Below are positions 1,454-59,498 of a stretch of DNA of 64,000 nt, in pieces. The position numbers and the translations under genes were made by a program. The notes beneath the pieces are model-generated. The model saw nothing but the letters and a program-made list of their open reading frames with translations, was not told the DNA's origin and did not search any database. The stretch is from Chloroflexota bacterium (GTDB taxonomy: Bacteria; Chloroflexota; Dehalococcoidia; DSTF01; RBG-16-68-14), in contig JAJCYW010000009.1 of NCBI GenBank assembly GCA_029262675.1, forward strand, positions 47,198-111,197, in the 5' to 3' direction. The first letter of the stretch is position 1; each line of letters starts with the position of its first letter.

Positions 1454-1579
1454 CGCCGTCTCACGAGCAGGCCCAGCCCAACTCCCCGAGGTTTGGCGGA
1501 CTTCCGGCGCCTGTCTGCGGGCCACCTGTTTCGAAGGGTAGAACGAGTTCGTTTGCAGACGCGTTTGCAGATCAGCGAG

Positions 1580-2320: not shown

Positions 2321-2433
2321 CTCCTACTGTGATGGTCGGAGTGTAGCACGCAGTGATCAGGCAAGTGGCGAACCAAGTGTTGTCAGGTTGCTTCGCTCTC
2401 CGTAGTCGCGTGGGCGCGTCGCACCGAGGCCCC

Positions 2434-3794: not shown

Positions 3795-3905
3795 GTGCTC
3801 GCTCTCCTTTCTGTGGAGCCGTCTTCGCGCCGGTCGAGAGGCGGGCGTCTCTGTGGTCGCTCCCATGTGCAAACACAGGCGGACCCGCGGCGACCAACAG
3901 GCGCT

Positions 3906-4433: not shown

Positions 4434-4464
4434 ACGCACCGATCTCCCTGTTCCGCCCGCGCGA

Positions 4465-5013: not shown

Positions 5014-5106
5014 CGTGAGTCTCCTTCAACAGACAGGGTCTTTCTTGTCTGAACCCGGTCCTAGTCGACCGGCCCCCTATACGCTACCACTCGCTATGTT
5101 AGTCCG

Positions 5107-18738: not shown

Positions 18739-20511
18739 GTGTCGGAGATGGTGATGCCGCGCGCACGCGATGTCGATCTAGGCACAACCGGCGCGCTTGT
18801 GACCGTCTATGGGACCAGTTCTGACGACAGGCTCGAGGGTATGGCGCTTGGCGACTTCAACGGCGACGGGAACCAGGACATTGTCGTAGCAGCACCCCGC
18901 GCGGACGGCCCTGACGATTCGCGGCGCGACGCGGGAGAAGTCTACGTCATCCTCGGCTCTGAAGCGCTCCCGACCGTTCATGACCTCGCCGAAGGTGCGC
19001 ACCAGACCGTGATTTTCGGAGCGGACCAGTTTGACAGGCTCGGCCGTTCGCTTGTCAGCGCTGATTTCAACGATGACGGTCTTGACGACTTCGCGCTCGG
19101 TGCCCGTGGCGATGGGCTGGCAAATGGGAAGGAAGATGTGGGCGAAGTATACATCTTCTTCGGCAAGCCTCGCATGCCCTCTTCCATCGACCTTGCCAGC
19201 CAGAGCCCGGACGTGTTGCTCATTGGCGCTGACCCGCAGGACGACTTTGGACAGTCGCTTGCCGTTGGCGAACTAGACGGCGACGGCATAGCCGACCTCG
19301 CTCTGGGAGCCGACAACGCAAACGGCGAAAACAATGAGCGCCAGGACGCTGGGGAAGTGCATGTCATGCTGGGCAGCCTGCGATTCCCCTCTCGCTTCGA
19401 CCTCGCCCAAGATTCGCTTGACGCCACGTTCATCGGCGCCGACATCGATGACGAATTCGGGTCCAACATCGCCATCGGCGACGTGAACGGCGATGGTAGC
19501 GATGACCTCGTGGTCTCTGCCGAAGACGCAAACGGACCTGAGAACGGCCGGGGCCAGGCGGGAGAAGCCTACGTCATCTTCGGTCCTGTCGAACCCAACA
19601 CCACAATCGACGTCTTGAATGTGGGCCCCGATGTGACCGTCTTTGGCGCGGACACCGATGACCGGCTGGGCGAAGCTCTGGCGGTGGGGGATGTGACCGG
19701 CGACGGCGTCGCAGACTTGGTCATCGGAGCGCCGAGGGCCGATGGCCCCAACAACGCCCGAAGCAGAGCTGGCGAAGCGTACCTCATTCGCGGTTCATCC
19801 AGCATGCCCTCAGCAATCGATCTGGCCGACGAGGGAAGCGCGCTCGTGATCTTGGGGACGGAGCGCGGCGATGACCTCGGCGGCGCCCTGGCCGCTGGAC
19901 TGGACCTAGACGGCGACGGCATCGGCGACCTACTAGTCGCGGCCGACAACGCCGCAGGTCCGGGCAACCGCCGCTTTAGAGCCGGGGAAGTTTATGTCAT
20001 CCTCGGCTCTAGCGAGTTTGAGCCGCTTCTTGAGCCGTTTATTGACACGGCGCGACGCGCTCAATCGTTCACGATCATCGGCGCGGATGATCACGACGAC
20101 CTGGGCTCGTTTGTCGGTGGAGGAGATTTTGATGGAGACGGTCAGGTCGATCTCCTGTTGGCGGCTCAAACGGGAAACGGACCTGAGGGACGGCGCACGT
20201 CGGCCGGCGAAGTCTACATACTCTCCGGCGGGGACATCGATAGGGATGGCGTGCTCGATATCACAGATAACTGCGTCGATGAGGGGAATCCCGAGCAAGA
20301 AGACGTCGATGGTGACGGTTTGGGTGACACGTGTGATTCATCGCCTACCGCGCAGTCGCGTTCGTCCTCGGCGCCGCGAGCGCTTGACGTAATGCACGTG
20401 GGACAGCTACTCTTGCCTGCATCTGTCCGCATTCGCTGCGGCCCAGAAGCACAATGTGGCGTCGCCGCGAGTGTCCGAGTAGGGCGGGGGAGCGGAGAGC
20501 GCCTGGCTTAA
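18739..20511 (+). CDS. FG-GAP (integrin-alpha-like beta-propeller) repeat protein with C-terminal thrombospondin type-3 Ca-binding repeats
   Basis: About 9 repeats of ...GD(F/V)NGDG..D(L/I)V(V/I)(S/G)A...A(D/N)GP...(G/A)GE(V/A)Y(V/I)(I/F)(L/F)G. C-terminal DRDGVLDITDNCVDEGNPEQEDVDGDGLGDTCD is TSP3-like. A hydrophobic segment lies in-frame upstream (see findings). Confidence 0.7.
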   Translation: MSEMVMPRARDVDLGTTGALVTVYGTSSDDRLEGMALGDFNGDGNQDIVVAAPRADGPDDSRRDAGEVYVILGSEALPTVHDLAEGAHQTVIFGADQFDRLGRSLVSADFNDDGLDDFALGARGDGLANGKEDVGEVYIFFGKPRMPSSIDLASQSPDVLLIGADPQDDFGQSLAVGELDGDGIADLALGADNANGENNERQDAGEVHVMLGSLRFPSRFDLAQDSLDATFIGADIDDEFGSNIAIGDVNGDGSDDLVVSAEDANGPENGRGQAGEAYVIFGPVEPNTTIDVLNVGPDVTVFGADTDDRLGEALAVGDVTGDGVADLVIGAPRADGPNNARSRAGEAYLIRGSSSMPSAIDLADEGSALVILGTERGDDLGGALAAGLDLDGDGIGDLLVAADNAAGPGNRRFRAGEVYVILGSSEFEPLLEPFIDTARRAQSFTIIGADDHDDLGSFVGGGDFDGDGQVDLLLAAQTGNGPEGRRTSAGEVYILSGGDIDRDGVLDITDNCVDEGNPEQEDVDGDGLGDTCDSSPTAQSRSSSAPRALDVMHVGQLLLPASVRIRCGPEAQCGVAASVRVGRGSGERLA

Positions 20512-22328
20512 TGTTCCGCCGTCTGCTGAGCTACTTAGTCCCTCAACGCTTCCTTATGGGTGGCGTCATTGGCACTATGCTCGCGAGCACTCTGGTCGCG
20601 ATGGCCGTGCCGTGGCCACTCAAGCTCATTGTCGACAACGTTCTCGGGCTACAGCCCCTCTTCGGACGCGAGATCGAGGGCACCGGCCAGCAGGTGCTAC
20701 TGGCGTTGGCCGCGTTCGGGTTCATTCTTCTCGCCGCGCTGAAAGGCTCGCTCACGGCTGTCCGAAGCCGCTGGGTGGCCCGCGTGAGCCAATCGGCGGG
20801 CCTCGAAATGCGACGCGACCTATACGCGCAGCTACAGAGGCTCTCCCTTCGCTTCCACGACACCAGCCGGACGGGCGATATTATCACCCGCATCACGACC
20901 GACGTGGACAGGCTTCAGAGCGCGTTCGTTTCCGGCCTCAGCCTATTCTCAGTAGACATGCTGACGGTCCTCGGAATCGCCGTCGTCATGTTCCTCGTAG
21001 ACTGGCAGTTCGCTCTCGTGGCGATGATCGTCCTGCCCAGCCTGCTCCTGATCTACACGAAATTCCGCGGCCGTGTGAAAGAAGCCGCGGTCGAGGCCCG
21101 GCAGAGCGAAGGCGGCATGGCGTCCGTCGCGCAAGAGATGCTCTCATCCATTCGAGTGGTGAAGGCGTTTGGACAGGAAGACCAGGAGCAGGAGCGATTC
21201 GACACGAAGACCAAGTCGAAAGCCGATGCGAGTGTTGAAGTTGCGACCTGGGAGGGGCTGTTCTCACTTTGGATCGAGCTGGCGACGGCAGCAGGTATCG
21301 CCGCCGTCCTCTGGTACGGGGGCTGGCGTGTGCTCGCGGGAAACCTGACGGTTGGGGAGATGATCCTGTTCAGCCAGTACCTGACCACACTCTATAGTCC
21401 GCTTCGACGTCTCAGCCGGCTGACGACCCTGGTGCAGCGCGCGAGCGCCAGCGCCGATCGTCTGAGCGAGATCTTCGACCTCGAAGCTGAGGTGCCAGAG
21501 GCCCCGGAGCCTGTGCATATCGAACGCGCGTCGGGCCGTCTGCAGCTAGAGCAGGTATCGTTCTCGTACTTCGGTGGCCAACCGGTGTTACAGGGCATCG
21601 ATCTCGATCTTGCGGCCGGCGAGACGCTCGCGCTCGTCGGCCCGACGGGTACCGGCAAGTCGACGCTCGTCAGCCTGATCCCCAGGTTCTACGATCCCGG
21701 AGAAGGCCGCATCCTCCTCGACGGCACCGACCTTCGACAGCTAGAGGTCAAAGCCTTACGCAGGCAAATCTCGTTTGTTCTGCAGGACACGGCTCTCTTT
21801 TCTGGCACGATCCGAGACAACATCGCCTACGGTCAGCCGGACGCCGGCGATGCCGCAATAATCGCTGTGGCGAAAGCCGCCAACGCCCACGCGTTCATCG
21901 AGGGCTTTCCTGATGGTTACGACGCTTCTGTTGGCGAGCGAGGCGTCACCCTCTCTGGCGGCCAGCGCCAGCGGATCGCGATCGCGCGTGCGCTCCTTCG
22001 CGACACGCCGATCCTGATCCTGGACGAGCCGACATCGGCCGTAGACAAGCAATCGGAGTCACTCATTCTCGAAGCCCTGTCGCGCTTGATCGAAGGCCGG
22101 ACAGTTGTGATCATCGCCCACCGGCTGGGGACGCTCGACCTCGTCGACCGCGTCGCGGTGCTGTTGGAGGGCAGGATTGCCTTTGCCGGCACGCCCAACG
22201 AGGCGATGCAGAAGCATCCAGACTTGCTGACGTCCCTGCAGGACTCTGGCAGATTAACCGCGCCGCAGGGTGCGGAGCGTGTGCCGCCGGTTACGGCGGC
22301 GAAGCCGAGAGGGAGAAGCCGTACGTGA
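20511..22328 (+). CDS. ABC exporter, fused permease + ATPase (MsbA-like)
   Basis: Six TM helices then an NBD with Walker A GPTGTGKST, signature LSGGQRQR and Walker B ILILDE. The start overlaps the upstream stop (TAATG). Confidence 0.85.
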   Translation: MFRRLLSYLVPQRFLMGGVIGTMLASTLVAMAVPWPLKLIVDNVLGLQPLFGREIEGTGQQVLLALAAFGFILLAALKGSLTAVRSRWVARVSQSAGLEMRRDLYAQLQRLSLRFHDTSRTGDIITRITTDVDRLQSAFVSGLSLFSVDMLTVLGIAVVMFLVDWQFALVAMIVLPSLLLIYTKFRGRVKEAAVEARQSEGGMASVAQEMLSSIRVVKAFGQEDQEQERFDTKTKSKADASVEVATWEGLFSLWIELATAAGIAAVLWYGGWRVLAGNLTVGEMILFSQYLTTLYSPLRRLSRLTTLVQRASASADRLSEIFDLEAEVPEAPEPVHIERASGRLQLEQVSFSYFGGQPVLQGIDLDLAAGETLALVGPTGTGKSTLVSLIPRFYDPGEGRILLDGTDLRQLEVKALRRQISFVLQDTALFSGTIRDNIAYGQPDAGDAAIIAVAKAANAHAFIEGFPDGYDASVGERGVTLSGGQRQRIAIARALLRDTPILILDEPTSAVDKQSESLILEALSRLIEGRTVVIIAHRLGTLDLVDRVAVLLEGRIAFAGTPNEAMQKHPDLLTSLQDSGRLTAPQGAERVPPVTAAKPRGRSRT

Positions 22329-25300
22329 GACACATCGCATTCGTTACCGCACTCATACTCGTTGCCGTCTTCGTACAGGTCACGCCTGCGCCCGCGGGAA
22401 CTCTTGTCGACATCGATCTCGCGATAGACACGCCCATCGCAAGAATCATCGGCCCCGGCTTCGCCGATCAGCTTAATGAGGTAGCGGTCGGCGACGTGAA
22501 CGACGACGGCATCGGCGATGTGATCATCGGCGCACCGAACGCGGACGTCAACGGTCCCCCTGTTCGCACGGACGCGGGAGAGGTGTACGTGGTGTTTGGC
22601 GGCGCGGGCGTTGCCGGAACGCTGGATCTCGACGCCGGCGCGGCGGACATCGTGATTCAGGGCGCAGAGGCATCGGATTCGCTCGGCCGTGCCGTCGCGA
22701 GCGGGGATGTGAACGCCGATGGCATCGATGACATCATCATCGCCGCGAAGGCGTCTGGCGACAGCAACGCGCGGCCGGCCGCCGGGGAAGTGTATATCAT
22801 CTTCGGCTCGACCTCTCTGAGCGGCACGAAAGACATTCTTGCCAACGACCAGGACGTACGAATCATCGGCGCTGATTCAGGCGATGACCTGGGGGCTGCG
22901 CTGGCAGTCGGTTTTCTCACCGGCGATGCGGACGGCGACCTCGTAATCGGCGCGGACAACGCGGATGGGCCGCCGGGCAGTTCGCGGCCTAACGCCGGCG
23001 AGGTCTACCTGATAGCGGGAACATCTGGGTTGCCCGCGATAATCGATCTCTCCGGCGGGCTGAGCAGCGCCAGCGCGATCGTGTACGGGGCTGAGGGCGG
23101 CGACGATGTTGGAACGGCTCTTGGGGTCGGCAACCTTAATGGTAGCGGCCCGGACGACTTAGCTATCGGCGCGGACGATGCGGAGGGTCCGGGGAACGCC
23201 CGCGCCGGCGCAGGCGAGGCGTACGGGCTGGCCGGGGAACTAGTCACGGGCGCCGTTGACCTCGCGGGGTCGGTCGCCAGGCTGACGATTCTGGGCGCGG
23301 AAGCAGGCGACAACCTGGGTACGGAGCTGGCGGTTGCTGACGTGAACAATGATGGCAAGGCCGATGTTGTCGTTTCGGCAGACACAGCCAACGGGCCAGG
23401 GAACGGGCGATTGGACGCGGGGGAGGCTTACGTCGTCTACGGCCGTTCGTCACTGAGCGAAACGGTAGATATCGCTTCGGATGAACAGGACGTGACCATC
23501 TTCGGCGCTGGCGTCCTCGATGGGCTCGGTGGCGCAGTCGCGGTCGGTGATACGACGGGCGATGGTGTGGCGGACATCGTGGTGTCGAATACCAATGGAA
23601 ACGGGCCACCAGGTGACTCCCGTCCAGGCGCTGGCGAAGCATACTTAATCGCCGGTTCCACAAACCTGCCGGCAAATCTGGACATAGCAACCTCCGCTTT
23701 ATTCATCACGATATATGGCGCGGGACCGCAGGACGATCTGGGGCGGGCCTTGGCCATCGGCAACGTAGCCGGGGGTAGTGGACAGGAGATCGTTGTCGCG
23801 GCATCGAAGGCGGACGGTGACCCGGATCCCCCAACCAAATGTCTAGACAACTGTCGAGCAAACGCGGGAGAGGTCTACGTCATCGGCCTTCCGGGCGCCG
23901 ATGCCACCGCAACGCCAACATCGACCTCGGCGTCGACGTCGACGCCGATGCCAACCACAACGCCGGGGTCGACTCCGGTTGTTACCGCGACGGATACGCC
24001 AGCGGCCACGGCCACAGTTCCGGCCACGCCGGGGGTCACGGCTACGCCGCCTGCTTCGTCGACACCGGCCGCGACATCTACGGCACCAGCGATTGCGACG
24101 CCGACGAATACACTGGAACCAACCCCGACGGCAACAGCGACGTCTGCGCCGAAGGTCTACGGCGACGCGAACTGCGACAGCACCGTGAACGCCGTCGACT
24201 CGGCGTTCATCCTGCAGTTACAGGCCGGTCTGATAAGCTCGCTGCCCTGCGAGGATGAGGCGGACGTCAACCGCGACGGCCTCCTCAATCCCATAGATTC
24301 CACGCTTATTCTGCAGTTCAGCGCGGGGCTGCTCAACAACCTGGGTCCTTCCGGCGCTTCAGCCACGTCTGAGGTCGCGCAGGCCGCGGGCGTGGCGCGC
24401 GCGCCGCTGGCACAGGACTCCCTCACGATCGATCTGGCGTCAGCGAGCCCGGCAGCGCGGGTGATCGGTGCAGCTATCGGCGACCAGCTGAATGAACTTG
24501 CGCTGGGCGACATGAATGGAGACGGCGTTCGCGACATCCTGATCGGCGCGCCTCGAGCGAACGGACCGGACGCGCGCCCGAACGCTGGCGCAGCCTTTGT
24601 TGTGTTCAGAGGCGCGGGCCTTCCGGCGACACGGGACCTCGCTGGATCTCCGCCGGATGTCACGATCTATGGAAGCGATGCGTTCGACGGGTTGGGCCGG
24701 TCGGTGGCGAGCGGTGACGTAAACGGCGACGGCGTCGACGACATCATCGTCGGGTCGCTCGGTTCCGGCGAGGGCAACGGACGCCCGGCGGCGGGTGAAG
24801 TCCACATCATCTTCGGCTCCAGCTCGCTGGGCGGGACGATAGACACGGCGAACGGGGGAGAAGACGTCCGCATCATCGGCGCGGACGTTGCCGACGACGC
24901 CGGCACGGCGCTGGCGGTGGCTGACATGAATGGCGATGGTGTCGCCGATCTGCTGATCGGAGCGGATGACGCGGCGGGGCCGGGGAACGCCCGGCCGAAT
25001 GCCGGCGAGATATATCTGATCTTGGGCAGGGCATCGTTGGGAGGAATCGTCGACCTGGCGGCCGGCGGCCCAAGCGCGACGGTGTACGGAGCGGAGTCGG
25101 GCGATGACATCGGCACGGCGCTGGCGGTAGGTGATATCGACGGTGACGGGCGTCTCGACCTGGTAATCGGTGCGGACGACGCGGCGGGGCCGGGGAACGC
25201 CCGCCCAGATGGGGGCGAGGTACACGTACTGTCCGGCACCGCGTTGAGCGGCACGGTCGACCTTGCCAGCAGCGTCAGGCGGCTGACGATCCTCGGCGCG

Positions 25301-26095
25301 GAGCCGACGGACAACTTCGGAACAAGGGTCGCGATCGGTGACGTGAACAACGATGGCTTGGTTGATGTGGTCGCATCGGCAGACATCGCCAGCGGCCCGG
25401 AGAATTCGCGGGGTGAGGCCGGCGAGGCATACGTCGTGTTCGGCCGGGCCTCGTTGAGCGGGACGGTCGACATCGCCGACGGTGGACAGGACGTGACGAT
25501 CCTGGGCGCGGATCTCATCGACAGGCTCGGCGGCGCGCTGGCAGTGGGGGACGTCACGGGCGACGGCGTCGCGGACATCGTGATAAGCAGCGACGACGGG
25601 GACGGGCCCACGAACGAGCGTTTCAACGCCGGCGAAGTGTACGTGATCGCCGGATCACCCGGCTTGTCGGGAACTGTGGACATCCTCACAGGCGGGCAGG
25701 GACTGACGATCTTCGGCGCCGACGTTGGCGATGATCTTGGACGCTCGATGACGGTAGGTAATGTGCTGGGCGACGGCGTACTGGAGATCGTCGTGTCGGC
25801 CTCCAAGGCGGACGGAGAAGCGAACGCCCGCAGCGAAGCTGGCGAAGTCTACGTCATCAATCTGGGAGGCGAAGCTGGACCTGGTGACGCACCCAACGGA
25901 AACGCTAACCATAGCCCTGGCGGACAGACCGCCGCCCCGGGATCAATCTATGCCAGCCTCGGCTCCGGCCCGAGCGCGGGATCTGGAAACGCCGGGCTAC
26001 CCTGGACAACGCTGATCGCGTTGTTAACTATGGGCGGCATCCTGCTGGGAGCGGGAGCTGCCGCACAGATACGCCTACGGGCCGGACATCGTTAG
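22325..26095 (+). CDS. giant (1256 aa) surface protein: signal peptide, ~9 FG-GAP blades, Thr/Pro linker, dockerin-like module, ~9 FG-GAP blades, C-terminal TM anchor
   Basis: N-terminal MRHIAFVTALILVAVFVQVTPAPA (signal). Repeated GDVN(A/D)DG...AGEVY motifs. Linker TPTSTSASTSTPMPTTTPGSTP.... Central module YGDANCDSTVNAVDSAFILQLQAGLISSLPCEDEADVNRDGLLNPIDSTLILQFSAGLL is a dockerin-type duplicated EF-hand. C-terminal LPWTTLIALLTMGGILLGAGAAAQIRLRAGHR. GTGA start/stop overlap with the ABC gene. Confidence 0.75.
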   Translation: MRHIAFVTALILVAVFVQVTPAPAGTLVDIDLAIDTPIARIIGPGFADQLNEVAVGDVNDDGIGDVIIGAPNADVNGPPVRTDAGEVYVVFGGAGVAGTLDLDAGAADIVIQGAEASDSLGRAVASGDVNADGIDDIIIAAKASGDSNARPAAGEVYIIFGSTSLSGTKDILANDQDVRIIGADSGDDLGAALAVGFLTGDADGDLVIGADNADGPPGSSRPNAGEVYLIAGTSGLPAIIDLSGGLSSASAIVYGAEGGDDVGTALGVGNLNGSGPDDLAIGADDAEGPGNARAGAGEAYGLAGELVTGAVDLAGSVARLTILGAEAGDNLGTELAVADVNNDGKADVVVSADTANGPGNGRLDAGEAYVVYGRSSLSETVDIASDEQDVTIFGAGVLDGLGGAVAVGDTTGDGVADIVVSNTNGNGPPGDSRPGAGEAYLIAGSTNLPANLDIATSALFITIYGAGPQDDLGRALAIGNVAGGSGQEIVVAASKADGDPDPPTKCLDNCRANAGEVYVIGLPGADATATPTSTSASTSTPMPTTTPGSTPVVTATDTPAATATVPATPGVTATPPASSTPAATSTAPAIATPTNTLEPTPTATATSAPKVYGDANCDSTVNAVDSAFILQLQAGLISSLPCEDEADVNRDGLLNPIDSTLILQFSAGLLNNLGPSGASATSEVAQAAGVARAPLAQDSLTIDLASASPAARVIGAAIGDQLNELALGDMNGDGVRDILIGAPRANGPDARPNAGAAFVVFRGAGLPATRDLAGSPPDVTIYGSDAFDGLGRSVASGDVNGDGVDDIIVGSLGSGEGNGRPAAGEVHIIFGSSSLGGTIDTANGGEDVRIIGADVADDAGTALAVADMNGDGVADLLIGADDAAGPGNARPNAGEIYLILGRASLGGIVDLAAGGPSATVYGAESGDDIGTALAVGDIDGDGRLDLVIGADDAAGPGNARPDGGEVHVLSGTALSGTVDLASSVRRLTILGAEPTDNFGTRVAIGDVNNDGLVDVVASADIASGPENSRGEAGEAYVVFGRASLSGTVDIADGGQDVTILGADLIDRLGGALAVGDVTGDGVADIVISSDDGDGPTNERFNAGEVYVIAGSPGLSGTVDILTGGQGLTIFGADVGDDLGRSMTVGNVLGDGVLEIVVSASKADGEANARSEAGEVYVINLGGEAGPGDAPNGNANHSPGGQTAAPGSIYASLGSGPSAGSGNAGLPWTTLIALLTMGGILLGAGAAAQIRLRAGHR

Positions 26096-26149: not shown

Positions 26150-27172
26150 ATGGCGAAGAATCCGCTGTTCTTTCTCGTTGGATGCTCGCGATCCGGAACG
26201 ACACTGGTTCAACACATGATGGACGCGCATGAGCAACTGGCGGTTGTCCCGGAGACGCGCTGGTTCGTTCATTGGTTCGACAAGCGCTACGGCATATCGG
26301 AAGACGGATTCGTTACTCCCGATCTGGTTCCCAGGTTGCTTCAGCGGCATCGCCTGTTCAGAGATGCGGACATCGGCGTGACGCAGCAGCAACTGGAACA
26401 CTTGGTTTCGGATGGCGGGAAAATGCGGTATCAGGATTTCGTTTCAATCCTCTTCGATCGCTATGCCGAGGCACGCGGCGTCGCGCACGCGGGAAACAAG
26501 ACTCCCGGATATGTGCGCAGCCTGCAAACCATCCACTTACTGTGGCCGGCCGCCAAGCTTATCCACGTCATTCGCGACGGGCGCGAGGTGAGTCTCTCCA
26601 TCATCCAGAAGCGGACGATGAGAAACCGGCCGGGCAAGCCGGGTGGCCGCTTCGCGACATGGCAAGAAGACGCGGTGACGACGTCGGCGCTCTGGTGGGA
26701 GTGGAACGTCAGGCTCGGCCAGGAAGCCGGCAGAGCCATCGGCCCCGGCCACTACTACGAGCTTCGCTACGACGCGCTCGTCGCGCGCCCTGAGGCCGAG
26801 AGCAGAGCCCTGTGCGATTTCCTAGGTGTGCCGTTCGACGATGCGATGCTCCGCCATCATGAGGGGCGCGTGAAAGCGGATCCCCGCCTGGTCGAGAAGC
26901 ACACAGGGCTAGATAAGCCCGTGACCGCCGGGATGCGAAACTGGAACACAGAGATGCCGCGCGACGATATCGAACGATTCGAAGCCTCGGCCGGCGGTCT
27001 CTTGGAAGAACTCGGCTACGAGTTCGGCGTTCAGAACCATTCGCCGGAGAGTCTAGCGCACGCGGCGCGACTTCGAGGGCTGTTCATGGGACGGCCCTTG
27101 CCAGAAAACTGGCGCGCCTGGAATGGCACGCGCGGTTCAGTAGAGGCGCATGCAGACCACGTGGGAAACTGA
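26150..27172 (+). CDS. sulfotransferase-family protein (Stf0 / Sulfotransfer_3-like)
   Basis: N-terminal 5'-PSB loop FFLVGCSRSGTTL, plus ...HVIRDGREV and ...YYELRYDALV motifs typical of the family. Confidence 0.65.
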   Translation: MAKNPLFFLVGCSRSGTTLVQHMMDAHEQLAVVPETRWFVHWFDKRYGISEDGFVTPDLVPRLLQRHRLFRDADIGVTQQQLEHLVSDGGKMRYQDFVSILFDRYAEARGVAHAGNKTPGYVRSLQTIHLLWPAAKLIHVIRDGREVSLSIIQKRTMRNRPGKPGGRFATWQEDAVTTSALWWEWNVRLGQEAGRAIGPGHYYELRYDALVARPEAESRALCDFLGVPFDDAMLRHHEGRVKADPRLVEKHTGLDKPVTAGMRNWNTEMPRDDIERFEASAGGLLEELGYEFGVQNHSPESLAHAARLRGLFMGRPLPENWRAWNGTRGSVEAHADHVGN

Positions 27173-27287
27173 CGAGATCGGACGGCCAGCGGTCGTTCAA
27201 CTGCAAACAGGCGCGAGAGAACGGAATGGCACGGGATGCCCGTGGAATCAGGCCAAGGACGGCCGGACTGATGAACGGAGGAGAGAC

Positions 27288-29351
27288 ATGGTGCATTTGA
27301 AAGTCCGACCCAGGAATACGATCCTCTTGGCCGCCGCCGTCGCTCTCGGCCTCGTCGTGGTGTGGGGCATAAGCATCATTTACGCAACTCTCACCACGCC
27401 CACCATGGATCTTAAGTCGACGACAGCGGACGTCACGATCCTGGGAGCGACAGGCGGATTACCTCAAGGCGACGCCATCGGCAGGCGTCTTGCGGCGGGA
27501 GATTTCAACGGCGACACGATAGCCGATGTTCTCATCGGCGCGCCAAACGCGGACGGGCCGGGTAATGCTCGCCTCGACTCGGGGGAGGCCTACGTCGTCT
27601 TTGGGCGGAGCGTCGGATCGCCGATCACGGTCGACATCAATAGCGGCGGCCAGGACGTCACGATTGTCGGCGCCGCCACGGGGAACCGCCTTGGCACGGC
27701 CGTCGCAGCCGGAGACGTCAACGGTGATACGTTCGACGACGTCATCATCGGCGCATCGGAGGCCGCCAACGGAGCGCTGTTGAGCGCCGGCGCGGTCTAT
27801 GTATTCTACGGTTCGGCAGCGATTTCCGGCACCAAGGACATCTCCAGCGTCGCGCCGGACGTGACGATCAAGGGCGGCAGCGCCCTGGATAAGCTCGGCC
27901 AAGCGCTCGCCGCGGGCGACATCGACAACGATGGCGATGACGACATCATCATCGGCGCACCACGGTCGCCCGCCGGCGGCCGGGCAGAAGCCGGCCAGGT
28001 CTACGGCATCTTCGGCTCCGGTTCGCTGCCCGCGACGCTCACGACCGGCGCCCTGGGAACGGCCGGATTCTCAATCATCGGCGCGAGTTCAGGCGACACG
28101 CTTGGATCCGACGTCGCCGTGGGGCGGGTGGACAGCGACAGCAACGCGGACATCCTCATCGGCGCGGAAAACGCGCTAGATGCCATCGGGGTCATGAGCG
28201 GTGAAGCCTATCTTGTGCTGGGCTCCCCGGCGCCCGGCAGCTCGATCGATCTGGCTGTCGGAGGCTGGGCTCTGAAAGTCGTCGGCGCTGATGAGGTAGA
28301 CGAGTTGGGTTCCCGTGTGGTTATCGGCGATGTCAACAACGACGGCTTCGGCGACATGATCATCGCGGCACCGAACGCTGCCGGCCCCGGCAACGTCAGG
28401 AACGCGGGCGGGTTCGGCGCGGGCGAGGCTTACGTCGTCTATGGCGCCGCGACCGTGTCCGGCACGGTCAACATCGTGCCCGGCGGGGGGAGCATCACGA
28501 CCATCTATGCCGCCGAAGCCGAGGATGAGATGAGTCGAGTCGGTGCGGCGGACGTGGATGGCGATACCATCGCTGACATTGTGTTCAGCTCCGACGACGG
28601 AGACGGCGCCGGTAACAGCCGGACCGACGCCGGCGAAGCATTCGTGTCCTACAGTTCCTCCACGCTTCCGGCGGCTGGTACTGTGATCGACGTCGCTGGC
28701 ACAGTGCCGGGCTCGGTCACGCCTGCGCTTACCGTCTTCGCCGCGGAGGCGCTTGATGACCTTGGCGCCGGGTATCTCGTTGCCGACTTCGACGGAGACA
28801 ACGGCGGCGACCTGGTGATCGGCGCGCCGGGCGCGGACGGGCCTTCGAACGGTCGCCCTAACGCAGGCGAGGTCTACGTGCTGCTGGGAGCGGCCGGTAC
28901 GCCACCGGGGCCGACGGCGACGCCTACGATCACGCCGACGCCGTGCCCAGGGGGCAAGGTGCCAGCTAGCGGTGGTGGGTGCGGCACGCCCACGCCGACG
29001 CCTCCCAAGCTCCCGTTCCCCGCCGACACCGACGGCGACGGTTGCGCCGACGTGAACGAGAGCTTACCTAAGGCCCAGTCATCTAATGGCGGGGGCCGTG
29101 ACTGGCTGAACCCCTGGGACTACTACAACGTCAACGGTGACGGCGTCATCGATTTGTTGAACGACATCCTCGGCGTAATCCAGCACTATCAGCCAACGCC
29201 AGGAGGAGCTGCGCCGTACGGCGCAGCATTCGACCGCGGGCCGACTACAGGGCCTCACCCGTGGAACATGACGGCGCCAGACGGTGTCATCGACCTGCTG
29301 AACGACGTTTTGGGAGTAATACTGCAGTACAACCCGACGGGCTGCACATAG
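27288..29351 (+). CDS. FG-GAP repeat protein with an N-terminal signal-anchor and C-terminal dockerin-like Ca-binding repeats
   Basis: Start at ATG 27288 with a GGAGGAGAGA RBS. TM segment ILLAAAVALGLVVVWGISIIY. Repeated GDVNGD...AGE(A/V)YV(V/F)(F/Y)G blades. C-terminal NVNGDGVIDLLNDILGVIQHY ... APDGVIDLLNDVLGVILQY pair. Confidence 0.7.
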   Translation: MVHLKVRPRNTILLAAAVALGLVVVWGISIIYATLTTPTMDLKSTTADVTILGATGGLPQGDAIGRRLAAGDFNGDTIADVLIGAPNADGPGNARLDSGEAYVVFGRSVGSPITVDINSGGQDVTIVGAATGNRLGTAVAAGDVNGDTFDDVIIGASEAANGALLSAGAVYVFYGSAAISGTKDISSVAPDVTIKGGSALDKLGQALAAGDIDNDGDDDIIIGAPRSPAGGRAEAGQVYGIFGSGSLPATLTTGALGTAGFSIIGASSGDTLGSDVAVGRVDSDSNADILIGAENALDAIGVMSGEAYLVLGSPAPGSSIDLAVGGWALKVVGADEVDELGSRVVIGDVNNDGFGDMIIAAPNAAGPGNVRNAGGFGAGEAYVVYGAATVSGTVNIVPGGGSITTIYAAEAEDEMSRVGAADVDGDTIADIVFSSDDGDGAGNSRTDAGEAFVSYSSSTLPAAGTVIDVAGTVPGSVTPALTVFAAEALDDLGAGYLVADFDGDNGGDLVIGAPGADGPSNGRPNAGEVYVLLGAAGTPPGPTATPTITPTPCPGGKVPASGGGCGTPTPTPPKLPFPADTDGDGCADVNESLPKAQSSNGGGRDWLNPWDYYNVNGDGVIDLLNDILGVIQHYQPTPGGAAPYGAAFDRGPTTGPHPWNMTAPDGVIDLLNDVLGVILQYNPTGCT

Positions 29352-35521: not shown

Positions 35522-36097
35522 CTAGAGCTTCACGAACTCCTCGACTTCACCGTCCGCTATGGAATAGATGATAAAGGGCTGCTCCTTCTTGCCGCTCATG
35601 CCAGGTGAGCCGTCCGGCATGCCCGGCAGCGCGATGCCGTCGATCTCCGGCTGCTCTTGGAGGAGCTTCCAGATTGCCTCTACGGGAACGTGCCCTTCCA
35701 CGTAGTAGTCGCCCATAATTGACGTGTGACAACTCCGCATGTCCTCCGGGATGCCGTAATCATCCTTGACTTCGTCGCCACTGTCCGTCATCACCTCGTT
35801 TATCTCGAACCCCTCGTCCTCCAGGTATTCACGATACCCTCCGCAACATCCTCACGTAGGCGACCTGTACAACGTGACAACGACATCCCGCCCGACGGGG
35901 GCGGGCGAGCCGGTGCTATCCGAGACCACACCTGGCACGTCCGACGTTGCCGCTGGCTCAACGTCCGTCGTCCCTCCGCACGCCGCGACGAGGAGGACGA
36001 CTAATGTGGCTACAGCGCCCAGAAGCAAGAATGAGTCCGGGCGACGAATCGTCAACCGGTTGGCTCTCGTAAGACGGTTCAAAGCGTTTTCCTCCAA
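35522..36097 (-). CDS. CopG/DUF411-like periplasmic metal-binding lipoprotein interrupted by an in-frame TGA at the first Cys of its CxCC motif (selenocysteine candidate or nonsense-mutated pseudogene)
   Basis: Minus-strand frame reads [lipoprotein signal ...LLVAACGG]...VVVTLYRSPT-TGA-GCCGGYREYLEDEGFEINEVMTDSGDEVKDDYGIPEDMRSCHTSIMGDYYVEGHVP...GIALPGMPDGSPGMSGK.... Same frame on both sides of the TGA (plus 35852-35854). Family consensus as I recall it is YKSPTCGCC ... SCHTA..GY.IEGHVP ... PGMPxGSPGM. Confidence 0.5.
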
Positions 36098-40533: not shown

Positions 40534-41393
40534 CAGAAACCCGAACGTTCACGGACATGGAACAGATCATCACGACCAGTTCCCGTCTGATGGACGGCGA
40601 CAAGCTGTATTTCACTGCCATCGGAGGGCCGCCTCTGGTTGCGGTCCTGCTCGCGAAGCGCCTGCGCGCCCCGGAGCTGGCCTACATCGTGGAAGACGGG
40701 ACCATCGCCCCGCAGGTCTCGCTGCCAGCGCCACCGTTTCTGATCGCGGCCAGCGGCGCCAGCTATCGCGCCGCGGCGTGGGCGGACATGAACACCGTCA
40801 GCTTCCATGCCGGCCTGGGCTACATCGACTACGGCGTCCTGGCGGCGGTGCAGGTGGACGAGTATGGCAACTTCAACTCGACCTTCGTCGGTCCGGCGTA
40901 CGAAAGGCCGGCGCGCCGCTTCGGCGGCCCCGGCGGCGCGAACGAGATCGCCTCGCTCTGTTGGCGGACGATCTTGATGACGCGCCAGCAGGGACGCAAG
41001 TTCGTCAAGAAGCTGGATTTCATGTCGTCGCCGGGCTTTCTGGACGGCAGCGCCGGCGCCCGCGAACGGGCCGGCCTCCCTGCGGATACCGGGCCCTGGC
41101 GCGTCGTGACGGAGATGGCCGTGTTCGACTTCGACGAGGAGACGCGGCGTATTCGTCTGAAGGCACTGGCACCTTGGGCGACGGTCGACGACGTGATCGC
41201 CGAGATGGAGTTTGAGCCCATGATCGGTCCTTCGCTGGAGAGCATCGAGGTACCCAGCGAGGAGGAGCTATCCGTGCTTCGGGCAGAAGTTGACACGACG
41301 GGCCGGACCGTGCGAGGCTGCTGGATCACGGTCGAACTCGATGGCGAGAATGCACGCCTCGTGGAGCAGGAGACCTCAGCCGAGGGGGCATAG
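40530..41393 (+). CDS. CoA-transferase family I, subunit B (GctB/IpdB-like)
   Basis: ATGA overlap with subunit A. ...YFTAIGGPPLVAVLLAKRL... and ...GGPGGANEIA..., the subunit-B pattern. Confidence 0.65.
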   Translation: MTETRTFTDMEQIITTSSRLMDGDKLYFTAIGGPPLVAVLLAKRLRAPELAYIVEDGTIAPQVSLPAPPFLIAASGASYRAAAWADMNTVSFHAGLGYIDYGVLAAVQVDEYGNFNSTFVGPAYERPARRFGGPGGANEIASLCWRTILMTRQQGRKFVKKLDFMSSPGFLDGSAGARERAGLPADTGPWRVVTEMAVFDFDEETRRIRLKALAPWATVDDVIAEMEFEPMIGPSLESIEVPSEEELSVLRAEVDTTGRTVRGCWITVELDGENARLVEQETSAEGA

Positions 41394-41463
41394 CACAGTG
41401 GCAGAACAGCCAGTCTATCAGGCCCGCGCAGCGCACGGCCCCGGCCGTCGCCGGGCAAGTCGC

Positions 41464-44322
41464 ATGCCCGTTGGCCGGCTTGGCATCTGTTTACTGATCG
41501 CGTTTCTTGGGCTCTGCCTTGGCTCGGCCGGCGTTCCGCTTGCGGCGGTCCCTCTGGCGGGGGCCGCCGCGACGGAGGGCGACGCGCGACCAAGCGAGTC
41601 TTGGACCGCTTACCCTCAGACCGGAGCGCAGCAGGACACCGAATTCGTCATTGTTCGCCAGCGCAACAAGCGGTTCGACCCGCCGGTGGTAGTGATCCAC
41701 GAAGGCGACACCGTCCTCTGGGTCAACGAGACAGCCGGCGGGTGGCACGACGTCCAGAGCTTCGAAGGCGAGTTCTCGTCCGAGCGGATGGATTTCGGTG
41801 ACACGTTCGTCCGCACGTTCGACGAGGCCGGCGTGTTCGGTTACTACTGTACACCTCATGTCGTCGATGGCATGCAAGGCGCCGTGGTAGTGCTGCCTCA
41901 GGACAGGCCGCTGCCCGATCCGCTGCCGACGCCGGCCCTACCCGCGCCTGACTCGCCGCCCACGCCCGACGTGCAAGCAGAAGACGGCCCGCCAGATGCC
42001 ATCGGTACGGTGGCCGGGGGCGGAGGCAATGGAGGCCTGGCCACGGAAGCCAGCCTCTACCTGCCGGAGGGTGTGGCAGTCGATGACGACGGTGCGGTCT
42101 ATGTATCAGACACAGAGAACTGCCAGGTGCGCCGAATCGATCCTGGAGGCAGGGCGGTTGGCGTATTGGGGCATGCGTCCTGCGGGTTCAGCATGGGTGG
42201 AGACGCCGACCTCGGCACCTGGCAACACACGAACTATCCACGGGGTGTGGCGGTCGGGCCGGATGGGCTCCTCTACGTCGCGGATACGATCAACTGCCGC
42301 GTGCGCCGAATCGAGGCGGCGGGGACGGTCATGACAATCGCCGGCCGCGGCTCGTGCCGGGCGAGCGGCGACGGCGGCCCCGCCGTCCATGCCGGCCTCT
42401 CGCCGTGGGGGCTGGGTTGGGACGAGCAGGGGAACCTGTACATCGCGGACGTATTCAACTGTCGCATCCGCAGGCTGGACAGCGAGGGCACGATCACGAC
42501 CGTGGCGGGCAATGGCGACTGCGGCTTCTCCGGCGACGGCGGCACGGCGACGGCAGCGAGCCTGTTCTTCCCTCGGGACGTGGCCGTCGGGCGAGACGGT
42601 GCGATCTTCATCGCGGACGCGGAGAACTGTCGCGTGAGGCGAATCGACCCGGCCACCGGCGTTATTGAGACCGTGGCCGGAGCGACCGTGGCCGGAGGTG
42701 AGTCCTGCGACGACGGTGGTGATGGCGAGGCGGCCGAAGCGGCCAGTCTCCAGCCATGGGCGCTCGCCGCTGAGCCGGGTGGCGCTGTGCTGGTGGCGGA
42801 CCGGGCCCACTGCCGCGTTCGCCGCTTCGTCCCCGGCGGCATCATCGAGACGGTCGCCGGAACCGGCCGCTGCGGCTACTCAGGCGACGGCGGCGACGCG
42901 ATCGACGCGGCGCTGCGCCAGCCATCGGACATCGCACTCGCGCCTGACGGCGTTCTCTACGTCGCCGATACAGGGAACTGCCGTATCCGGCGAATAGAGA
43001 CGAGCGGCACGATCACCACCATAGCCGGCGGCGGGGCCTGCGCGCCCGGAGGTGACGGCGGCTGGGCCGTTAGCGCCAGCGCTTGGCATCCCATGGGGCT
43101 GGCGATGGGCGAAGGCGGCGAATGGTACTTTTCCGAACTGGATACCTGCCGGGTGCGGCGTGTGGACGCCAACGGCATCATCTCGACGTATGCGGGCAAC
43201 GGGCTCTGTGGCTACGCCGGCGACGGCGGAGCCGCCGTCGACGCGAGGCTCAGCGACATGCTGGGCGGGCTGGCGTTGGCCGAAGACGGGACGCTCTACA
43301 TCGCTGAGGGCTACAACTGCCGCGTGCGAAGTGTCACTACCCGCGGGCTGATACATACTGTTGCCGGCAACGGCAGGTGCGAGTTCTCCGGCGACGGCGG
43401 TCCGGCGCGGGAGGCCGCCCTCAATTTCGTCGCCGATGTAGAGCCGGACGGAAGCGGAGGCCTCCTGATAGCGGAGCCGTTCAACTGTCGCGTGCGACGG
43501 GTCGACCTAGCGACTGGCATCATCGACACGGTTGTTGGTGACGGCTCATGTCATTTCAATGGGGAGGGCGTCCCGGCCGGGCAGGCTGGCGTGGAGCCGT
43601 GGGCAGTGGCCGCGGGCCCGGATGGCTCGATCTTCTTGGCCGACTCGGGTAACTGCCGGGTCAGGAGCGTCAACGCGGATGGGCTGATCGCCACGGTGGC
43701 AGGCGGAGATGAATGCGGCATTGGTGGCGACGGCGGACCCGCGCTCCAGGCACAGTTCTTGTTGCCCTACGATCTCGCACTGGATCAGGCCGGCAACCTC
43801 TACGTCGCGGATCTACGGGCGTTCACCGTGCGGAAGGTGGATGCGCAGGGTGTCATCAGCACGGTCGCTGGTATCGGCATCTCCCGCCCAATCGATATCG
43901 GCGGCTATGATCCACTGAACGGGCTGCTCTGCTCGATCCACGCCCTTCCGGTGCCGGTACCCTCGTATCTGGGCGACGGTGGTCCCGCGAAAGAGGCCGG
44001 GCTCTACTTCCCATACGGGATCGCGCTGGATACCGAAGGGCATCTCTATATTGCCGATACGTTTGACCATCGAGTGCGTCGCGTGGCCTGCGGTGGCGTC
44101 GTGCCCTGCGCGGATTCCGCGGCGTTGGTCGATACGCCAAGCGACGCGTCAGACGATGAGACGCCGCCCGTGGCGCTGCCGGAGACTGGGCAGGCCGCCC
44201 AGCAGCCGTATGGCGGGGTCTCGCTGGCCGGTCTGGCTGCCTTGCTTAGCGCTTCGCTGGTGCTGTTGGCGGCCCTGGTGGGCCTCCGCAGGCGGGGGGC
44301 CAGTCGAAAACGGCCGTACTAG
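41464..44322 (+). CDS. cell-wall-anchored protein: signal peptide, type-1-copper cupredoxin domain, 12 NHL repeats (two 6-bladed propellers), LPETG sortase signal
   Basis: MPVGRLGICLLIAFLGLCLGSAG (signal). Cupredoxin ligands H...C-x2-H-x4-M (GGWHDV ... YYCTPHVVDGM). Twelve repeats of (Y/F)(V/I)AD..NC(R/Q)(V/I)RR(I/V)D. C-terminal LPETG, then a hydrophobic stretch, then RRRGASRKRPY. Confidence 0.75.
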   Translation: MPVGRLGICLLIAFLGLCLGSAGVPLAAVPLAGAAATEGDARPSESWTAYPQTGAQQDTEFVIVRQRNKRFDPPVVVIHEGDTVLWVNETAGGWHDVQSFEGEFSSERMDFGDTFVRTFDEAGVFGYYCTPHVVDGMQGAVVVLPQDRPLPDPLPTPALPAPDSPPTPDVQAEDGPPDAIGTVAGGGGNGGLATEASLYLPEGVAVDDDGAVYVSDTENCQVRRIDPGGRAVGVLGHASCGFSMGGDADLGTWQHTNYPRGVAVGPDGLLYVADTINCRVRRIEAAGTVMTIAGRGSCRASGDGGPAVHAGLSPWGLGWDEQGNLYIADVFNCRIRRLDSEGTITTVAGNGDCGFSGDGGTATAASLFFPRDVAVGRDGAIFIADAENCRVRRIDPATGVIETVAGATVAGGESCDDGGDGEAAEAASLQPWALAAEPGGAVLVADRAHCRVRRFVPGGIIETVAGTGRCGYSGDGGDAIDAALRQPSDIALAPDGVLYVADTGNCRIRRIETSGTITTIAGGGACAPGGDGGWAVSASAWHPMGLAMGEGGEWYFSELDTCRVRRVDANGIISTYAGNGLCGYAGDGGAAVDARLSDMLGGLALAEDGTLYIAEGYNCRVRSVTTRGLIHTVAGNGRCEFSGDGGPAREAALNFVADVEPDGSGGLLIAEPFNCRVRRVDLATGIIDTVVGDGSCHFNGEGVPAGQAGVEPWAVAAGPDGSIFLADSGNCRVRSVNADGLIATVAGGDECGIGGDGGPALQAQFLLPYDLALDQAGNLYVADLRAFTVRKVDAQGVISTVAGIGISRPIDIGGYDPLNGLLCSIHALPVPVPSYLGDGGPAKEAGLYFPYGIALDTEGHLYIADTFDHRVRRVACGGVVPCADSAALVDTPSDASDDETPPVALPETGQAAQQPYGGVSLAGLAALLSASLVLLAALVGLRRRGASRKRPY

Positions 44323-52697: not shown

Positions 52698-53168
52698 ATG
52701 GCCGAGATCTACACCACCGCCTGGTACGACAGCATGAAGGATCTCCTCAACAAGAGCGATGAGGTCACGAAGAACGCACCGCAGGGTGTCTGGCGCATCC
52801 TGGCGGAGATTCGCGGCGATGGCACATCACCCTACATCGGCGGCGATGATGTCAAACGCTTCTCGATAGTGCTCGACGATGGCAAATGCGCGAGCTACCA
52901 GGAGCTGACAGAGGCGCCGCCGCGGAAGGACTTCGAATTCATCCTGGAGATGCCCGCCGGCCTCTTCGAGCGTATCGTCGCCAACCAGGCAGATCCGCTT
53001 GAGGCCGGGCTAAAGGGTGACGTGAAGATCGTCGGCGACATGCGGGTGCTGATCCAGAACGCGGAGCTAGTGAACGTCCTCTCTGAGATCTACCAGCGCG
53101 AGATCGAAACGGAGTGGCCTAACGGTACCCCTCCGTACGAGGCAGCGACTGCTGGAGGTGCGGCATGA
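52698..53168 (+). CDS. SCP2-domain protein
   Basis: AAGGAG RBS. ...FSIVLDDGKCASYQELTE...FEFILEMPAGLFERIVANQADPLEAGLKGDVKIVGDMRVLIQNAELVNVL is an SCP2 fold signature. Confidence 0.55.
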   Translation: MAEIYTTAWYDSMKDLLNKSDEVTKNAPQGVWRILAEIRGDGTSPYIGGDDVKRFSIVLDDGKCASYQELTEAPPRKDFEFILEMPAGLFERIVANQADPLEAGLKGDVKIVGDMRVLIQNAELVNVLSEIYQREIETEWPNGTPPYEAATAGGAA

Positions 53169-55945: not shown

Positions 55946-55961
55946 GAAGCGAGGTGCAGTC

Positions 55962-56612
55962 ATGCGCGTAGGTCGAGTTGATACAAGAGATGAGGAGCTG
56001 CTGAGCCCTGAGTCGACGGCCTGGCAGGAAGCCGCCGTCAATGAGGTTGTGTTGTCGCCGACACCCCTCGAGTTGCAGCCTACCGATTACATTCGCGTTT
56101 CCCGAAACGGCCGTCCGTACGGCGCGGTTTCGAGCATGAGGGTGAGCGCCCTGCACAACGGCGACAGTGTGTTCTTCCACTTGGTTTGGCAGGATGACTC
56201 TGAAGATCGGGCGATCAAGGACATCAACCAGTTCGTGGATGGCGCCGCCGTGATGTTCCCGATAGTCGAGGATGCGCCGCTCATTGGCATGGGAATCCAA
56301 GGCAAGCCAGTGAACGTATGGATGTGGCGCGCCGACTGGGAACGGCCGAAGAACGTCGCTGCGGAAGGGATGGGGACGACTCAGCGCCGGGACGACCCGG
56401 CACTTTCGTCCGCGGTGCGTCATGCCGATGGGAATTGGGATCTGATCGTTGGCAGATCGCTCGAAGAAAGAGACGCCCCTCCGGGGACGATCGCACTGGC
56501 GCCCGGAGCGGCGTCGAAGATCGGATTCGCAGTCTGGCAGGGTTCCGAACAGGAGCGAGCCGGTCTGAAGGCATTCTCTCCCGCCTGGCAAGATCTAGAG
56601 CTTGATGCGTAG
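55962..56612 (+). CDS. EbdC/DdhC-like heme-b gamma subunit (EB_dh domain), without signal peptide
   Basis: GAGGTG RBS. ...MRVSALHNGDSVFFHLVWQDDSEDRAIKDINQFVDGAAVMFP...GKPVNVWMWRADWE matches the ethylbenzene-dehydrogenase gamma-subunit fold pattern. N-terminus is hydrophilic. Confidence 0.6.
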   Translation: MRVGRVDTRDEELLSPESTAWQEAAVNEVVLSPTPLELQPTDYIRVSRNGRPYGAVSSMRVSALHNGDSVFFHLVWQDDSEDRAIKDINQFVDGAAVMFPIVEDAPLIGMGIQGKPVNVWMWRADWERPKNVAAEGMGTTQRRDDPALSSAVRHADGNWDLIVGRSLEERDAPPGTIALAPGAASKIGFAVWQGSEQERAGLKAFSPAWQDLELDA

Positions 56613-56630
56613 CGGAAAGTAGGGCTCGCC

Positions 56631-57683: not shown

Positions 57684-58357
57684 TGCAAATCGAATCGCTC
57701 GGCACGCAGGAAGGAATCGTCGCGGCCGCCCACAGCCGCCTCTATCGGCTGCTTGCGGACGGCATCTTGTTCCCGGATCGTGACGCTTTCGATGAGATCA
57801 AGGCGGGGCGCGTTCGCGACTACGTTGTGGAGACGTGCCGGGAGTTGCCGTACGCTCTGGAGCCAGCGTTCGATGGGCTGGTGGCTTCGGGTGAGTACGT
57901 GGACTTTCAGTCCGAGTTCCTCAGGGTATTCGAAGTCGGCCAAGGCATGCCGCCATGCCCGCTCTACAGCGGGATCTATAGAGGCGGGAGAAAGGCCGTG
58001 ATGGAAGAGTTGGCGCGCTTCTATTCCTACTTCGGCCTGTCGATCGAACACGGCTCAGGGGAGCTGCCAGATCACTTGGCGACCGAGCTGGAATTCATGC
58101 ACTTCCTCGCATTCAAGGAGTTGACCGCCCTTCACCAGGAGAAGGACCCGATGCCGTACCGGCGTGCCCAGGCAGATTTTCTGGAGCGTCAGCTTGTATC
58201 GTGGGTGCCTTCGCTGGAGAAGAGACTACAGGGAGCGGCACCGCCTCCGTTCTATACAGCGCTTGTTTGGCTGACCAACGCGTTGGCTCGCGAGCACCTT
58301 GCGTTGCTCAATGGATCAGTCGATCGGAATGCCACGATTTCATTGGATGCAGTGTGA
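57680..58357 (+). CDS. TorD/NarJ/EbdD-family assembly chaperone (delta)
   Basis: ATGA overlap with beta. The all-helical ~225 aa protein in the position and size of NarJ/EbdD. Identification is largely by context. Confidence 0.55.
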
Positions 58358-59481: not shown

Positions 59482-59498
59482 GCGAATGGAGGGACACC

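Follow-up and report, generated by a model that had tools for sequence, protein, structure and literature searches.

Does a TGA that stands where a copper-binding protein family has cysteine encode selenocysteine (Sec), or does it mark a gene that has been broken at that codon? The question arises from a minus-strand gene in a 64,000-nucleotide stretch of DNA from a Chloroflexota bacterium (the whole stretch is hereafter called the window). The original prediction, made from the letters of the DNA, left two options side by side, a selenoprotein and a fresh pseudogene. From comparison of the gene with its relatives, we consider it probable that the UGA truly encodes selenocysteine and that the gene product is a secreted copper-binding lipoprotein of the CopG type (DUF411). 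What favors the selenocysteine reading is the persistence of this TGA, in at least six phyla, in copies of the gene that are intact and remain under selection.

A UGA codon within the C-x-C-C motif of a CopG-like gene

The minus-strand frame 36097..35522 contains a single internal stop, the TGA at plus 35852-35854; it is otherwise open and terminates with TAG at 35524-35522. The translation around the internal stop reads ...VVTLYRSPT-TGA-GCCGGYREYLEDEGFEI..., and the parts of the gene, with the evidence for each, are as follows (L029 is the locus of the closest relative).

35522..36097, minus strand: whole DUF411/CopG-like gene (translation, PF04214 match, tblastx against L029)
36080..36097, minus strand: start region (read from the sequence)
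35978..36034, minus strand: hydrophobic signal segment with a lipobox-like L-V-A-A-C at its end (sequence)
35525..35887, minus strand: folded thioredoxin-like CopG domain, residues 71-191 (model pLDDT ~93, Foldseek)
35852..35854, minus strand: in-frame UGA, proposed selenocysteine codon, residue 82 (translation, alignment, TGA in 26 other loci)
35843..35854, minus strand: U-G-C-C motif, the equivalent of CopG CxCC, containing UxxC (alignment, CGCC of 6WIS, model)
35740-35723, minus strand: M-R-S-C-H-T motif (invariant residues in the alignment)
35623-35591, minus strand: Met-rich G-M-P-D-G-S-P-G-M-S-G segment (alignment)

The first possible start is a TTG at 36097-36095, which gives 191 codons and adjoins a GGAGG at 36095-36091. 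A second in-frame TTG at 36082-36080, giving 186 codons, lies 8 nt past the GGAGG, and we infer that it is the likelier start. The lipobox-like Cys codon is at 35980-35978, and relatives show the same ...AAC-GG; the lipobox-like site suggests that the protein is probably secreted and lipid-anchored. When the TGA is replaced by Cys, the product matches Pfam DUF411 (PF04214) with E=1.8e-23 and 82.4 bits against a gathering cutoff of 27, and 456 homologous proteins were retrieved, with identities of only about 58% for the closest; several of them are named as Dehalococcoidia. NCBIfam, which includes selenoprotein-specific annotation models, gave no matches to the window protein.

In an alignment with 20 homologs, the TGA occupies the column of the first Cys of the C-x-C-C motif (S-P-T-C-G-C-C), which is Cys in at least 90% of the rows; the second and third Cys of the motif are invariant and both are kept in the window gene. 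Every invariant family residue is retained in the window copy, with neither a frameshift nor a second stop. Because C-G-C-C contains a CxxC, U-G-C-C is a UxxC, the commonest motif in the selenoprotein table of PMC13188914. The CopG ligand set of C-x-C-C plus Met would be complete only if the UGA is read as Sec or Cys. The original prediction had described a minus-strand frame continuous across 35852-35854, a CopG/DUF411-like identity and a stop at the first Cys of CxCC, with SPTCGCC as the family consensus. The translation, the PF04214 match together with the CopG fold match described below, and the alignment column with its 20 homologs bear out all of these points.

An AlphaFold model gives a pLDDT of ~93 for residues 71-191 and ~55 for residues 41-70, with a helix at residues 26-40; the linker of ~30 residues past the lipobox-like site is a low-confidence region of the model. 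The top Foldseek matches are 6WJE and 6WIS (TM 0.86, rmsd 1.8 Å), followed by thioredoxins and glutaredoxins, and the sequence match to 6WIS/6WJE (E=1.7e-21) aligns the CGCC of 6WIS with the window motif. In the model, residue 82 lies in the loop between strand β1 (73-78) and helix α1 (85-94), which we take to be the site at which thioredoxin-fold proteins carry CxxC. Several Cys-form homologs (P0028, P0034, P0040, P0045 and others) have a precomputed glutaredoxin (PF00462) match besides DUF411, consistent with a thioredoxin-like fold around CxCC.

PMC8456105 cites the two PDB entries as Pseudomonas aeruginosa CopG. In reviews (PMC7558416, PMC8456105), CopG is described as a periplasmic thioredoxin-like protein that binds a tetranuclear copper cluster via CxCC and methionines; it contributes to resistance against copper when oxygen is absent, and a conversion between Cu(I) and Cu(II) in either direction is a possible activity. 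The window protein resembles CopG/CutG (6WIS, 6WJE) in its Pfam domain, sequence, fold, C-x-C-C position, M-x-S-C-H-T motif, Met-rich G-M-P-x-G-S-P-G-M segment and predicted extracytoplasmic location, and some of its Sec-form relatives sit beside CopA and a multicopper oxidase. It differs from CopG in three respects: the codon for the first Cys of CxCC is UGA, a lipobox and a ~30-residue linker are found instead of a plain periplasmic signal, and the gene stands alone among unrelated metabolic genes.

TGA forms in other genomes and selection past the TGA

Because a gene caller ends its prediction at a TGA, protein sets derived in this way cannot contain Sec forms, and we therefore searched DNA with a pattern, TGA-GGN-TGY-TGY, 102 bases, ATG-N6-TGY-CAY-AC, in which TGA is required at the motif codon. 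Short database matches that we examined all still had Cys at the motif position. The pattern comprises 18 fixed bases and four two-fold bases; it matched the window once and none of 100 shuffles. One metagenome collection and one genome collection (596 billion bases) were searched, with about one match per collection expected by chance according to our own estimate.

The search returned 34 matches (21 metagenome loci and 13 genome loci), and in-frame translation identified 26 of them as DUF411 genes with TGA at the same codon as in the window. These 26 loci represent 22 distinct sequences and about 15 lineages. All of them have an open frame with conserved sequence before and after the TGA: the upstream part carries a signal peptide or lipobox, then V-x-V-Y-x-S-P-T followed by U-G-C-C, and the downstream part holds the full domain and ends at a normal stop. 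Record titles among the TGA forms include Vicinamibacteria, SAR324, Dehalococcoidia, another Chloroflexi bacterium, Betaproteobacteria and Acidimicrobiia, and the forms span Chloroflexota, Acidobacteriota, SAR324, Actinomycetota, Betaproteobacteria and others, at least six phyla. Records that carry a TGA form include OZ252227.1, CAYOSF01, MGNZ01, JANQGZ01, CAUZIB01 and CBDANB01. Eight of the TGA-form genes themselves terminate in TGA; TGA is therefore a normal stop there and the code is not reassigned. The ortholog alignment of Cys versus TGA that had been proposed with the original prediction, once run, thus showed Cys in most homologs and TGA in 26 other loci.

The remaining eight of the 34 pattern matches are not DUF411 genes; two are random and six are copies of one conserved segment (L003:1707-1837, L005:3333-3463, L012:1092-1222, L017:986-1116, L026:4289-4419 and L033:1964-2094). 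The six contigs that share this segment are otherwise unrelated, two being titled delta proteobacterium and Syntrophorhabdus MAG. In five of the six, the segment lies ~100-200 nt from an identical-scoring tRNA-Ser(UGA) gene of 87-90 nt, none being found in L005, and Rfam returned tRNA and no other family on these contigs.

Judged by substitution rates, purifying selection is acting on the sequence downstream of the TGA. In comparisons of the window with L029, L009, L020, L034 and L001 over 109 codons past the TGA, dN/dS is 0.24-0.31 at dS 0.7-1.0, and tblastx of the window against L029 gives a single 194-residue alignment across the TGA (E=3e-71); the frame is kept under purifying selection on either side of the TGA. 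In a neighbor-joining tree of 22 Sec forms and 120 Cys forms, a rough distance tree, one clade unites the window with L029, L009 and L020 and consists of TGA forms only. The absence of any Cys member from this clade implies that the TGA was inherited and not newly acquired. Other Sec forms (L001/L004, L034, L010 and L014/L016) adjoin different Cys-form groups in the tree, and Cys/Sec switches seem to have happened several times in DUF411.

These results bear on the option of a fresh pseudogene or a sequencing error, in which TGC or TGT would have become TGA in no genome but this one and the protein would end at residue 81. A change from TGC to TGA takes one base, Sec machinery is not visible in the 64-kb window, and the hairpin described below is not significant in the single sequence, all of which such an event would accommodate. 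However, the three closest relatives share the TGA in a clade that lacks a Cys member, dN/dS past the TGA stays at about 0.25 at the divergence given above, no second defect accompanies the stop while the invariant residues are all kept, and TGA recurs at the same codon in ~15 lineages. Neither relaxed selection nor further disabling changes, by which a pseudogene would be recognized, were found past the stop. We regard a pseudogene or sequencing error as extremely unlikely, and this half of the original prediction gives way to the other: TGA at the same codon in 26 loci, purifying selection, the TGA-only clade and the comparative support for the hairpin all speak for a selenoprotein.

A stem-loop downstream of the UGA

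Bacterial Sec insertion would call for an RNA signal past the UGA, and two features of the coding sequence are relevant.

35823..35839, minus strand: 17-nt SECIS-like stem-loop (sequence; comparative tests)
35810..35839, minus strand: block of nine informative codons (G-Y-R-E-Y-L-E followed by E-G) with every base shared by the window, L029, L009 and L020

The stem-loop is the one picked out in the original prediction just downstream of the UGA, with GGGUAU at 35839-35834, the loop CGUGA at 35833-35829 and AUACCU at 35828-35823; 12 nt separate the UGA from the first stem base. The stem has six pairs, including one G-U, has no bulged U and is weak, with a calculated energy of -5.2 kcal/mol. Taken alone, the window sequence does not distinguish itself: an 81-nt segment folds with z=-0.9 against shuffles and with a minimum-energy fold that does not use the hairpin, and a 48-nt region does not differ significantly from synonymous recodings of the same protein (z=-0.3). 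Over all Sec forms, the mean shift against synonymous recodings is mild.

Comparison among the Sec forms reveals constraint at the nucleotide level. The four codons directly after the UGA (G-C-C-G) all vary synonymously in the window clade, and the nine informative codons of the block listed above are identical in all four members; identical-codon runs elsewhere in the gene do not exceed three codons (permutation p=0.007 for the nine-codon run). Synonymous divergence (pS) is 0.18-0.35 in the first 21 codons past the TGA compared with 0.46-0.54 gene-wide. At the same codon positions, the mean local folding energy is -9.8 kcal/mol in 21 distinct Sec forms versus -5.4 kcal/mol in Cys forms (Mann-Whitney p=0.0017), the Cys controls being eight genes from one part of the family.

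In a common register that pairs alignment columns 14-21 with 27-34, 71% of cells pair, and sliding the partner lowers this to 30-49%; of 500 shuffles, one attains the covariation score of 0.277. Column pair 20-28 is never broken (AU 10, GC 6, GU 6). The peptide G-Y-x-x-Y-L, present also in Cys forms, fixes four of the six stem pairs. The cleanest test rests on the other two, 18-30 and 21-27, which are set by third codon positions that are synonymous or free. When genes with G-Y-x-x-Y-L are compared, these two pairs are formed in 16 of 16 Sec cells versus 5 of 12 Cys cells (p=0.0007); with one sequence per lineage the figures are 8/8 and 5/12 (p=0.01). Both synonymous-site pairs are kept in L010 via double synonymous changes (GGG/TAC to GGA/TAT, and TAT/GAA to TAC/GAG).

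The peptide itself accounts for part of the pattern. The Cys forms L036 and L040 carry an almost identical hairpin because their peptide is G-Y-x-x-Y-L, and the alternation of Tyr/Tyr with Trp/His, which makes up part of the covariation, is seen also among Cys forms, 6WIS for example, and may reflect constraint on the protein. With the ungapped alignment as input, RNAalifold returned no consensus structure, since the register varies from lineage to lineage; some Sec lineages fold in a shifted register. Over 66 nt from the UGA, the Sec form of L002 and L013 lacks the common register; a stronger stem of 8 bp (CGCGGAUU / AAUCCGCG) is present instead, and its loop falls ~28-33 nt past the UGA, which suggests that the position of the SECIS differs between lineages.

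The claim that this hairpin is SECIS-like therefore stands in part: it fails the single-sequence tests and finds no RNAalifold consensus, and it gains from the identical nucleotides, the synonymous-site pairs and the covariation against controls. The evidence supports, short of proof, a plausible minimal SECIS in the window gene. The SECIS of E. coli fdhF has an 11-nt spacing and specific loop-base requirements. The window hairpin resembles it in being a 17-nt stem-loop a short distance past the UGA (here 12 nt) whose loop contains G and U; it differs in sequence, which is unrelated, and in its six-pair stem with a G-U, its lack of a bulged U and its energy of -5.2 kcal/mol. The minimal SelB-binding SECIS of E. 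coli is likewise 17 nt long (PMC11431864).

Gene context, decoding and relation to known selenoproteins

The window gene stands alone; its neighbors encode a cytochrome P450, a luciferase-like monooxygenase, a metallophosphoesterase and a thiolase, and no copper-resistance neighborhood (copA, cus, multicopper oxidase) is present at the gene. Nor do the window and L029 share gene order. A copper-resistance neighborhood is a frequent, not a strict, feature of the DUF411 family. In L025, a SAR324 locus, the genes on either side of the Sec form encode a CopA-type P1B ATPase, which has three HMA domains, and a multicopper oxidase (1017-6422); this is the setting in which CopG is described from copper-resistance loci. 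The betaproteobacterial Sec form in L031 has two YHS-domain genes nearby, and Cys-form relatives adjoin YHS or cupredoxin genes.

Two Cys-form loci (L044:82-1049 and L039:1-824) have a cupredoxin gene that ends 1-4 nt inside the DUF411 start, an overlap that suggests translational coupling. L036 and L040 have YHS-domain neighbors; YHS is a listed selenoprotein family, and no TGA form was seen in those genes. Elsewhere in the window, the only other copper-related gene seen encodes a 1010-aa protein (41290-44322, plus strand) with NHL/teneurin-type beta-propeller repeats and a plastocyanin/azurin-like copper-binding domain near its N-terminus. The plus strand also encodes two FG-GAP repeat proteins (18739-20511 and 27150-29351), between which lie an ABC transporter (20454-22328), a 1256-aa ORF (22325-26095) and a sulfotransferase (26150-27172).

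No SelA, SelB or SelD was found among the 30 large ORFs scanned in the 64-kb window, and tRNA and Rfam scans of the window returned no tRNA, and so no tRNA-Sec, and no Rfam match; the remark in the original prediction that no sel genes are visible agrees with these scans. The locus flanks of the TGA forms likewise contain no selA, selB, selD or tRNA-Sec. The literature records the Sec trait for Chloroflexi, Acidobacteria, Actinobacteria, Deltaproteobacteria and Betaproteobacteria (PMC1794560 Table 2; PMC5389517), so nothing argues against a Sec trait in this organism.

Other TGA-interrupted frames of the window were considered and set aside. The only plausible one, minus 2434-4480, consists of two to three separate genes that share a frame and have their own starts, and is no candidate for read-through; one gene there is nitroreductase-like, its neighbor contains a C-L-V-C motif, and single TGA stops separate them. 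The remaining TGA-interrupted frames are antisense to long genes. At 53165-62330 (plus strand), genes for a 4Fe-4S dicluster protein, a NarJ-like chaperone and a MobB-FmdE fusion lie between those of two molybdopterin oxidoreductases, paralogs of 926 and 943 aa; both oxidoreductases are uninterrupted, so neither is a Sec form.

One alternative is an inherited Sec-form gene whose decoding was lost recently, or which was transferred without the machinery, so that it would be newly dead and still look intact. The Sec trait is patchy and often lost (PMC1794560), no sel genes lie in the window, and the window and L029 have no common gene order around the gene, all of which fits such a history. On the other hand, the start region, lipobox, invariant residues and hairpin nucleotides show no decay, and pairwise dN/dS is equally low to every relative. 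We consider this explanation unlikely.

A further alternative keeps the gene alive and changes the amino acid: a tRNA-Sec-like tRNA-Cys of the selC* type might insert Cys at the UGA, or a suppressor or near-cognate tRNA might read it. The UGA does stand at a Cys position, tRNA-Sec-like tRNA-Cys species that may act as opal suppressors occur in Deltaproteobacteria, and suppressor-type allo-tRNAs occur in Acidobacteria (PMC5389517). Such tRNAs, however, are reported from few anaerobic groups and not from Chloroflexi (PMC5389517), general suppression would be costly because eight TGA-form genes end in TGA, and pairing of UGA with Cys at a UxxC followed by a downstream hairpin is the standard Sec signature. 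Insertion of an amino acid other than Sec is thus, in our estimate, very unlikely.

For the favored selenocysteine reading, we propose that the UGA at 35854-35852 would be decoded by the standard bacterial route. The stem-loop within the coding sequence, 12 nt past the UGA, would recruit SelB with Sec-tRNA(Sec), and Sec would replace the first Cys of the copper-cluster motif, converting C-x-C-C to U-G-C-C. Outside the cytoplasm, the mature protein, presumably lipidated, may bind copper or cycle its redox state in the manner proposed for CopG; one thiolate would be exchanged for a selenolate, with a putative chemical benefit.

The proposed Sec form agrees in several respects with the UxxC selenoproteins of the thioredoxin fold (thioredoxin, glutaredoxin, DsbA-like, SaoT and others; PMC13188914 Table 1). 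In these proteins, too, Sec occupies the position of the N-terminal Cys, before helix α1, Cys homologs far outnumber Sec forms, which are scattered in the tree, and a SECIS-like hairpin lies in the coding sequence right past the UGA. By contrast, the CopG motif is a set of metal-cluster ligands (CxCC and Met) and not a simple dithiol redox pair. Sec at a metal-binding position of the Cys form is known from formate dehydrogenase, where it is a Mo/W ligand, and from [NiFeSe] hydrogenase, where it is a Ni ligand. Heavy-metal handling, the setting of many recently predicted selenoprotein families (PMC13188914), is shared by the predicted CopZ-like, YHS-domain and SO_0444 Cu/Zn efflux selenoproteins. 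These metal-related selenoproteins differ from the window protein in fold and metal site, which here is presumably a multi-copper cluster, and among the selenoproteins listed in PMC13188914 there is none with Sec as a substitute for a ligand of such a cluster.

DUF411, PF04214, CopG and UxCC are absent from the full table of the 2026 inventory of 119 prokaryotic selenoprotein families (PMC13188914); they are not mentioned in a 2022 review (PMC9312934), the GOS survey (PMC2398784) or the deep-Sep paper, nor in the BSepDB main text. None of the papers searched pairs DUF411 with a selenoprotein. Absence from these sources is no proof that a Sec form of DUF411 has never been described. The mechanism itself (UGA, SECIS, SelB, and Sec for Cys in a thioredoxin-fold UxxC) is entirely standard, and the added interest lies in Sec at a copper-cluster ligand.

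Beyond the single locus, we lean, with modest confidence, towards a broader proposal. CopG/DUF411 would have a widespread natural Sec form, spread over at least six phyla and missing from inventories and annotation models, in which Sec takes the place of a Cys ligand of the multi-copper cluster and so yields a natural copper-selenolate cluster protein; its very short SECIS would be built largely from G-Y/W-x-x-Y/H-L, a peptide motif already present in Cys forms. The prior presence of this SECIS-forming motif would explain recurrent switches from Cys to Sec: the coding sequence of G-Y-x-x-Y-L gives four of the six stem pairs, which offers a concrete route to a new Sec codon with few extra changes.

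If this proposal is true, the prokaryotic selenoproteome gains one more family; new bacterial families are often reported, and the Sec form of CopG would be a solid addition and not a surprise. Gene callers would be splitting or truncating the Sec-form genes, leaving a copper-handling subfamily mis-annotated in environmental genomes. The natural Sec/Cys pair at a copper-cluster ligand would, in turn, provide a system for the role of selenium in metal binding and copper redox chemistry.
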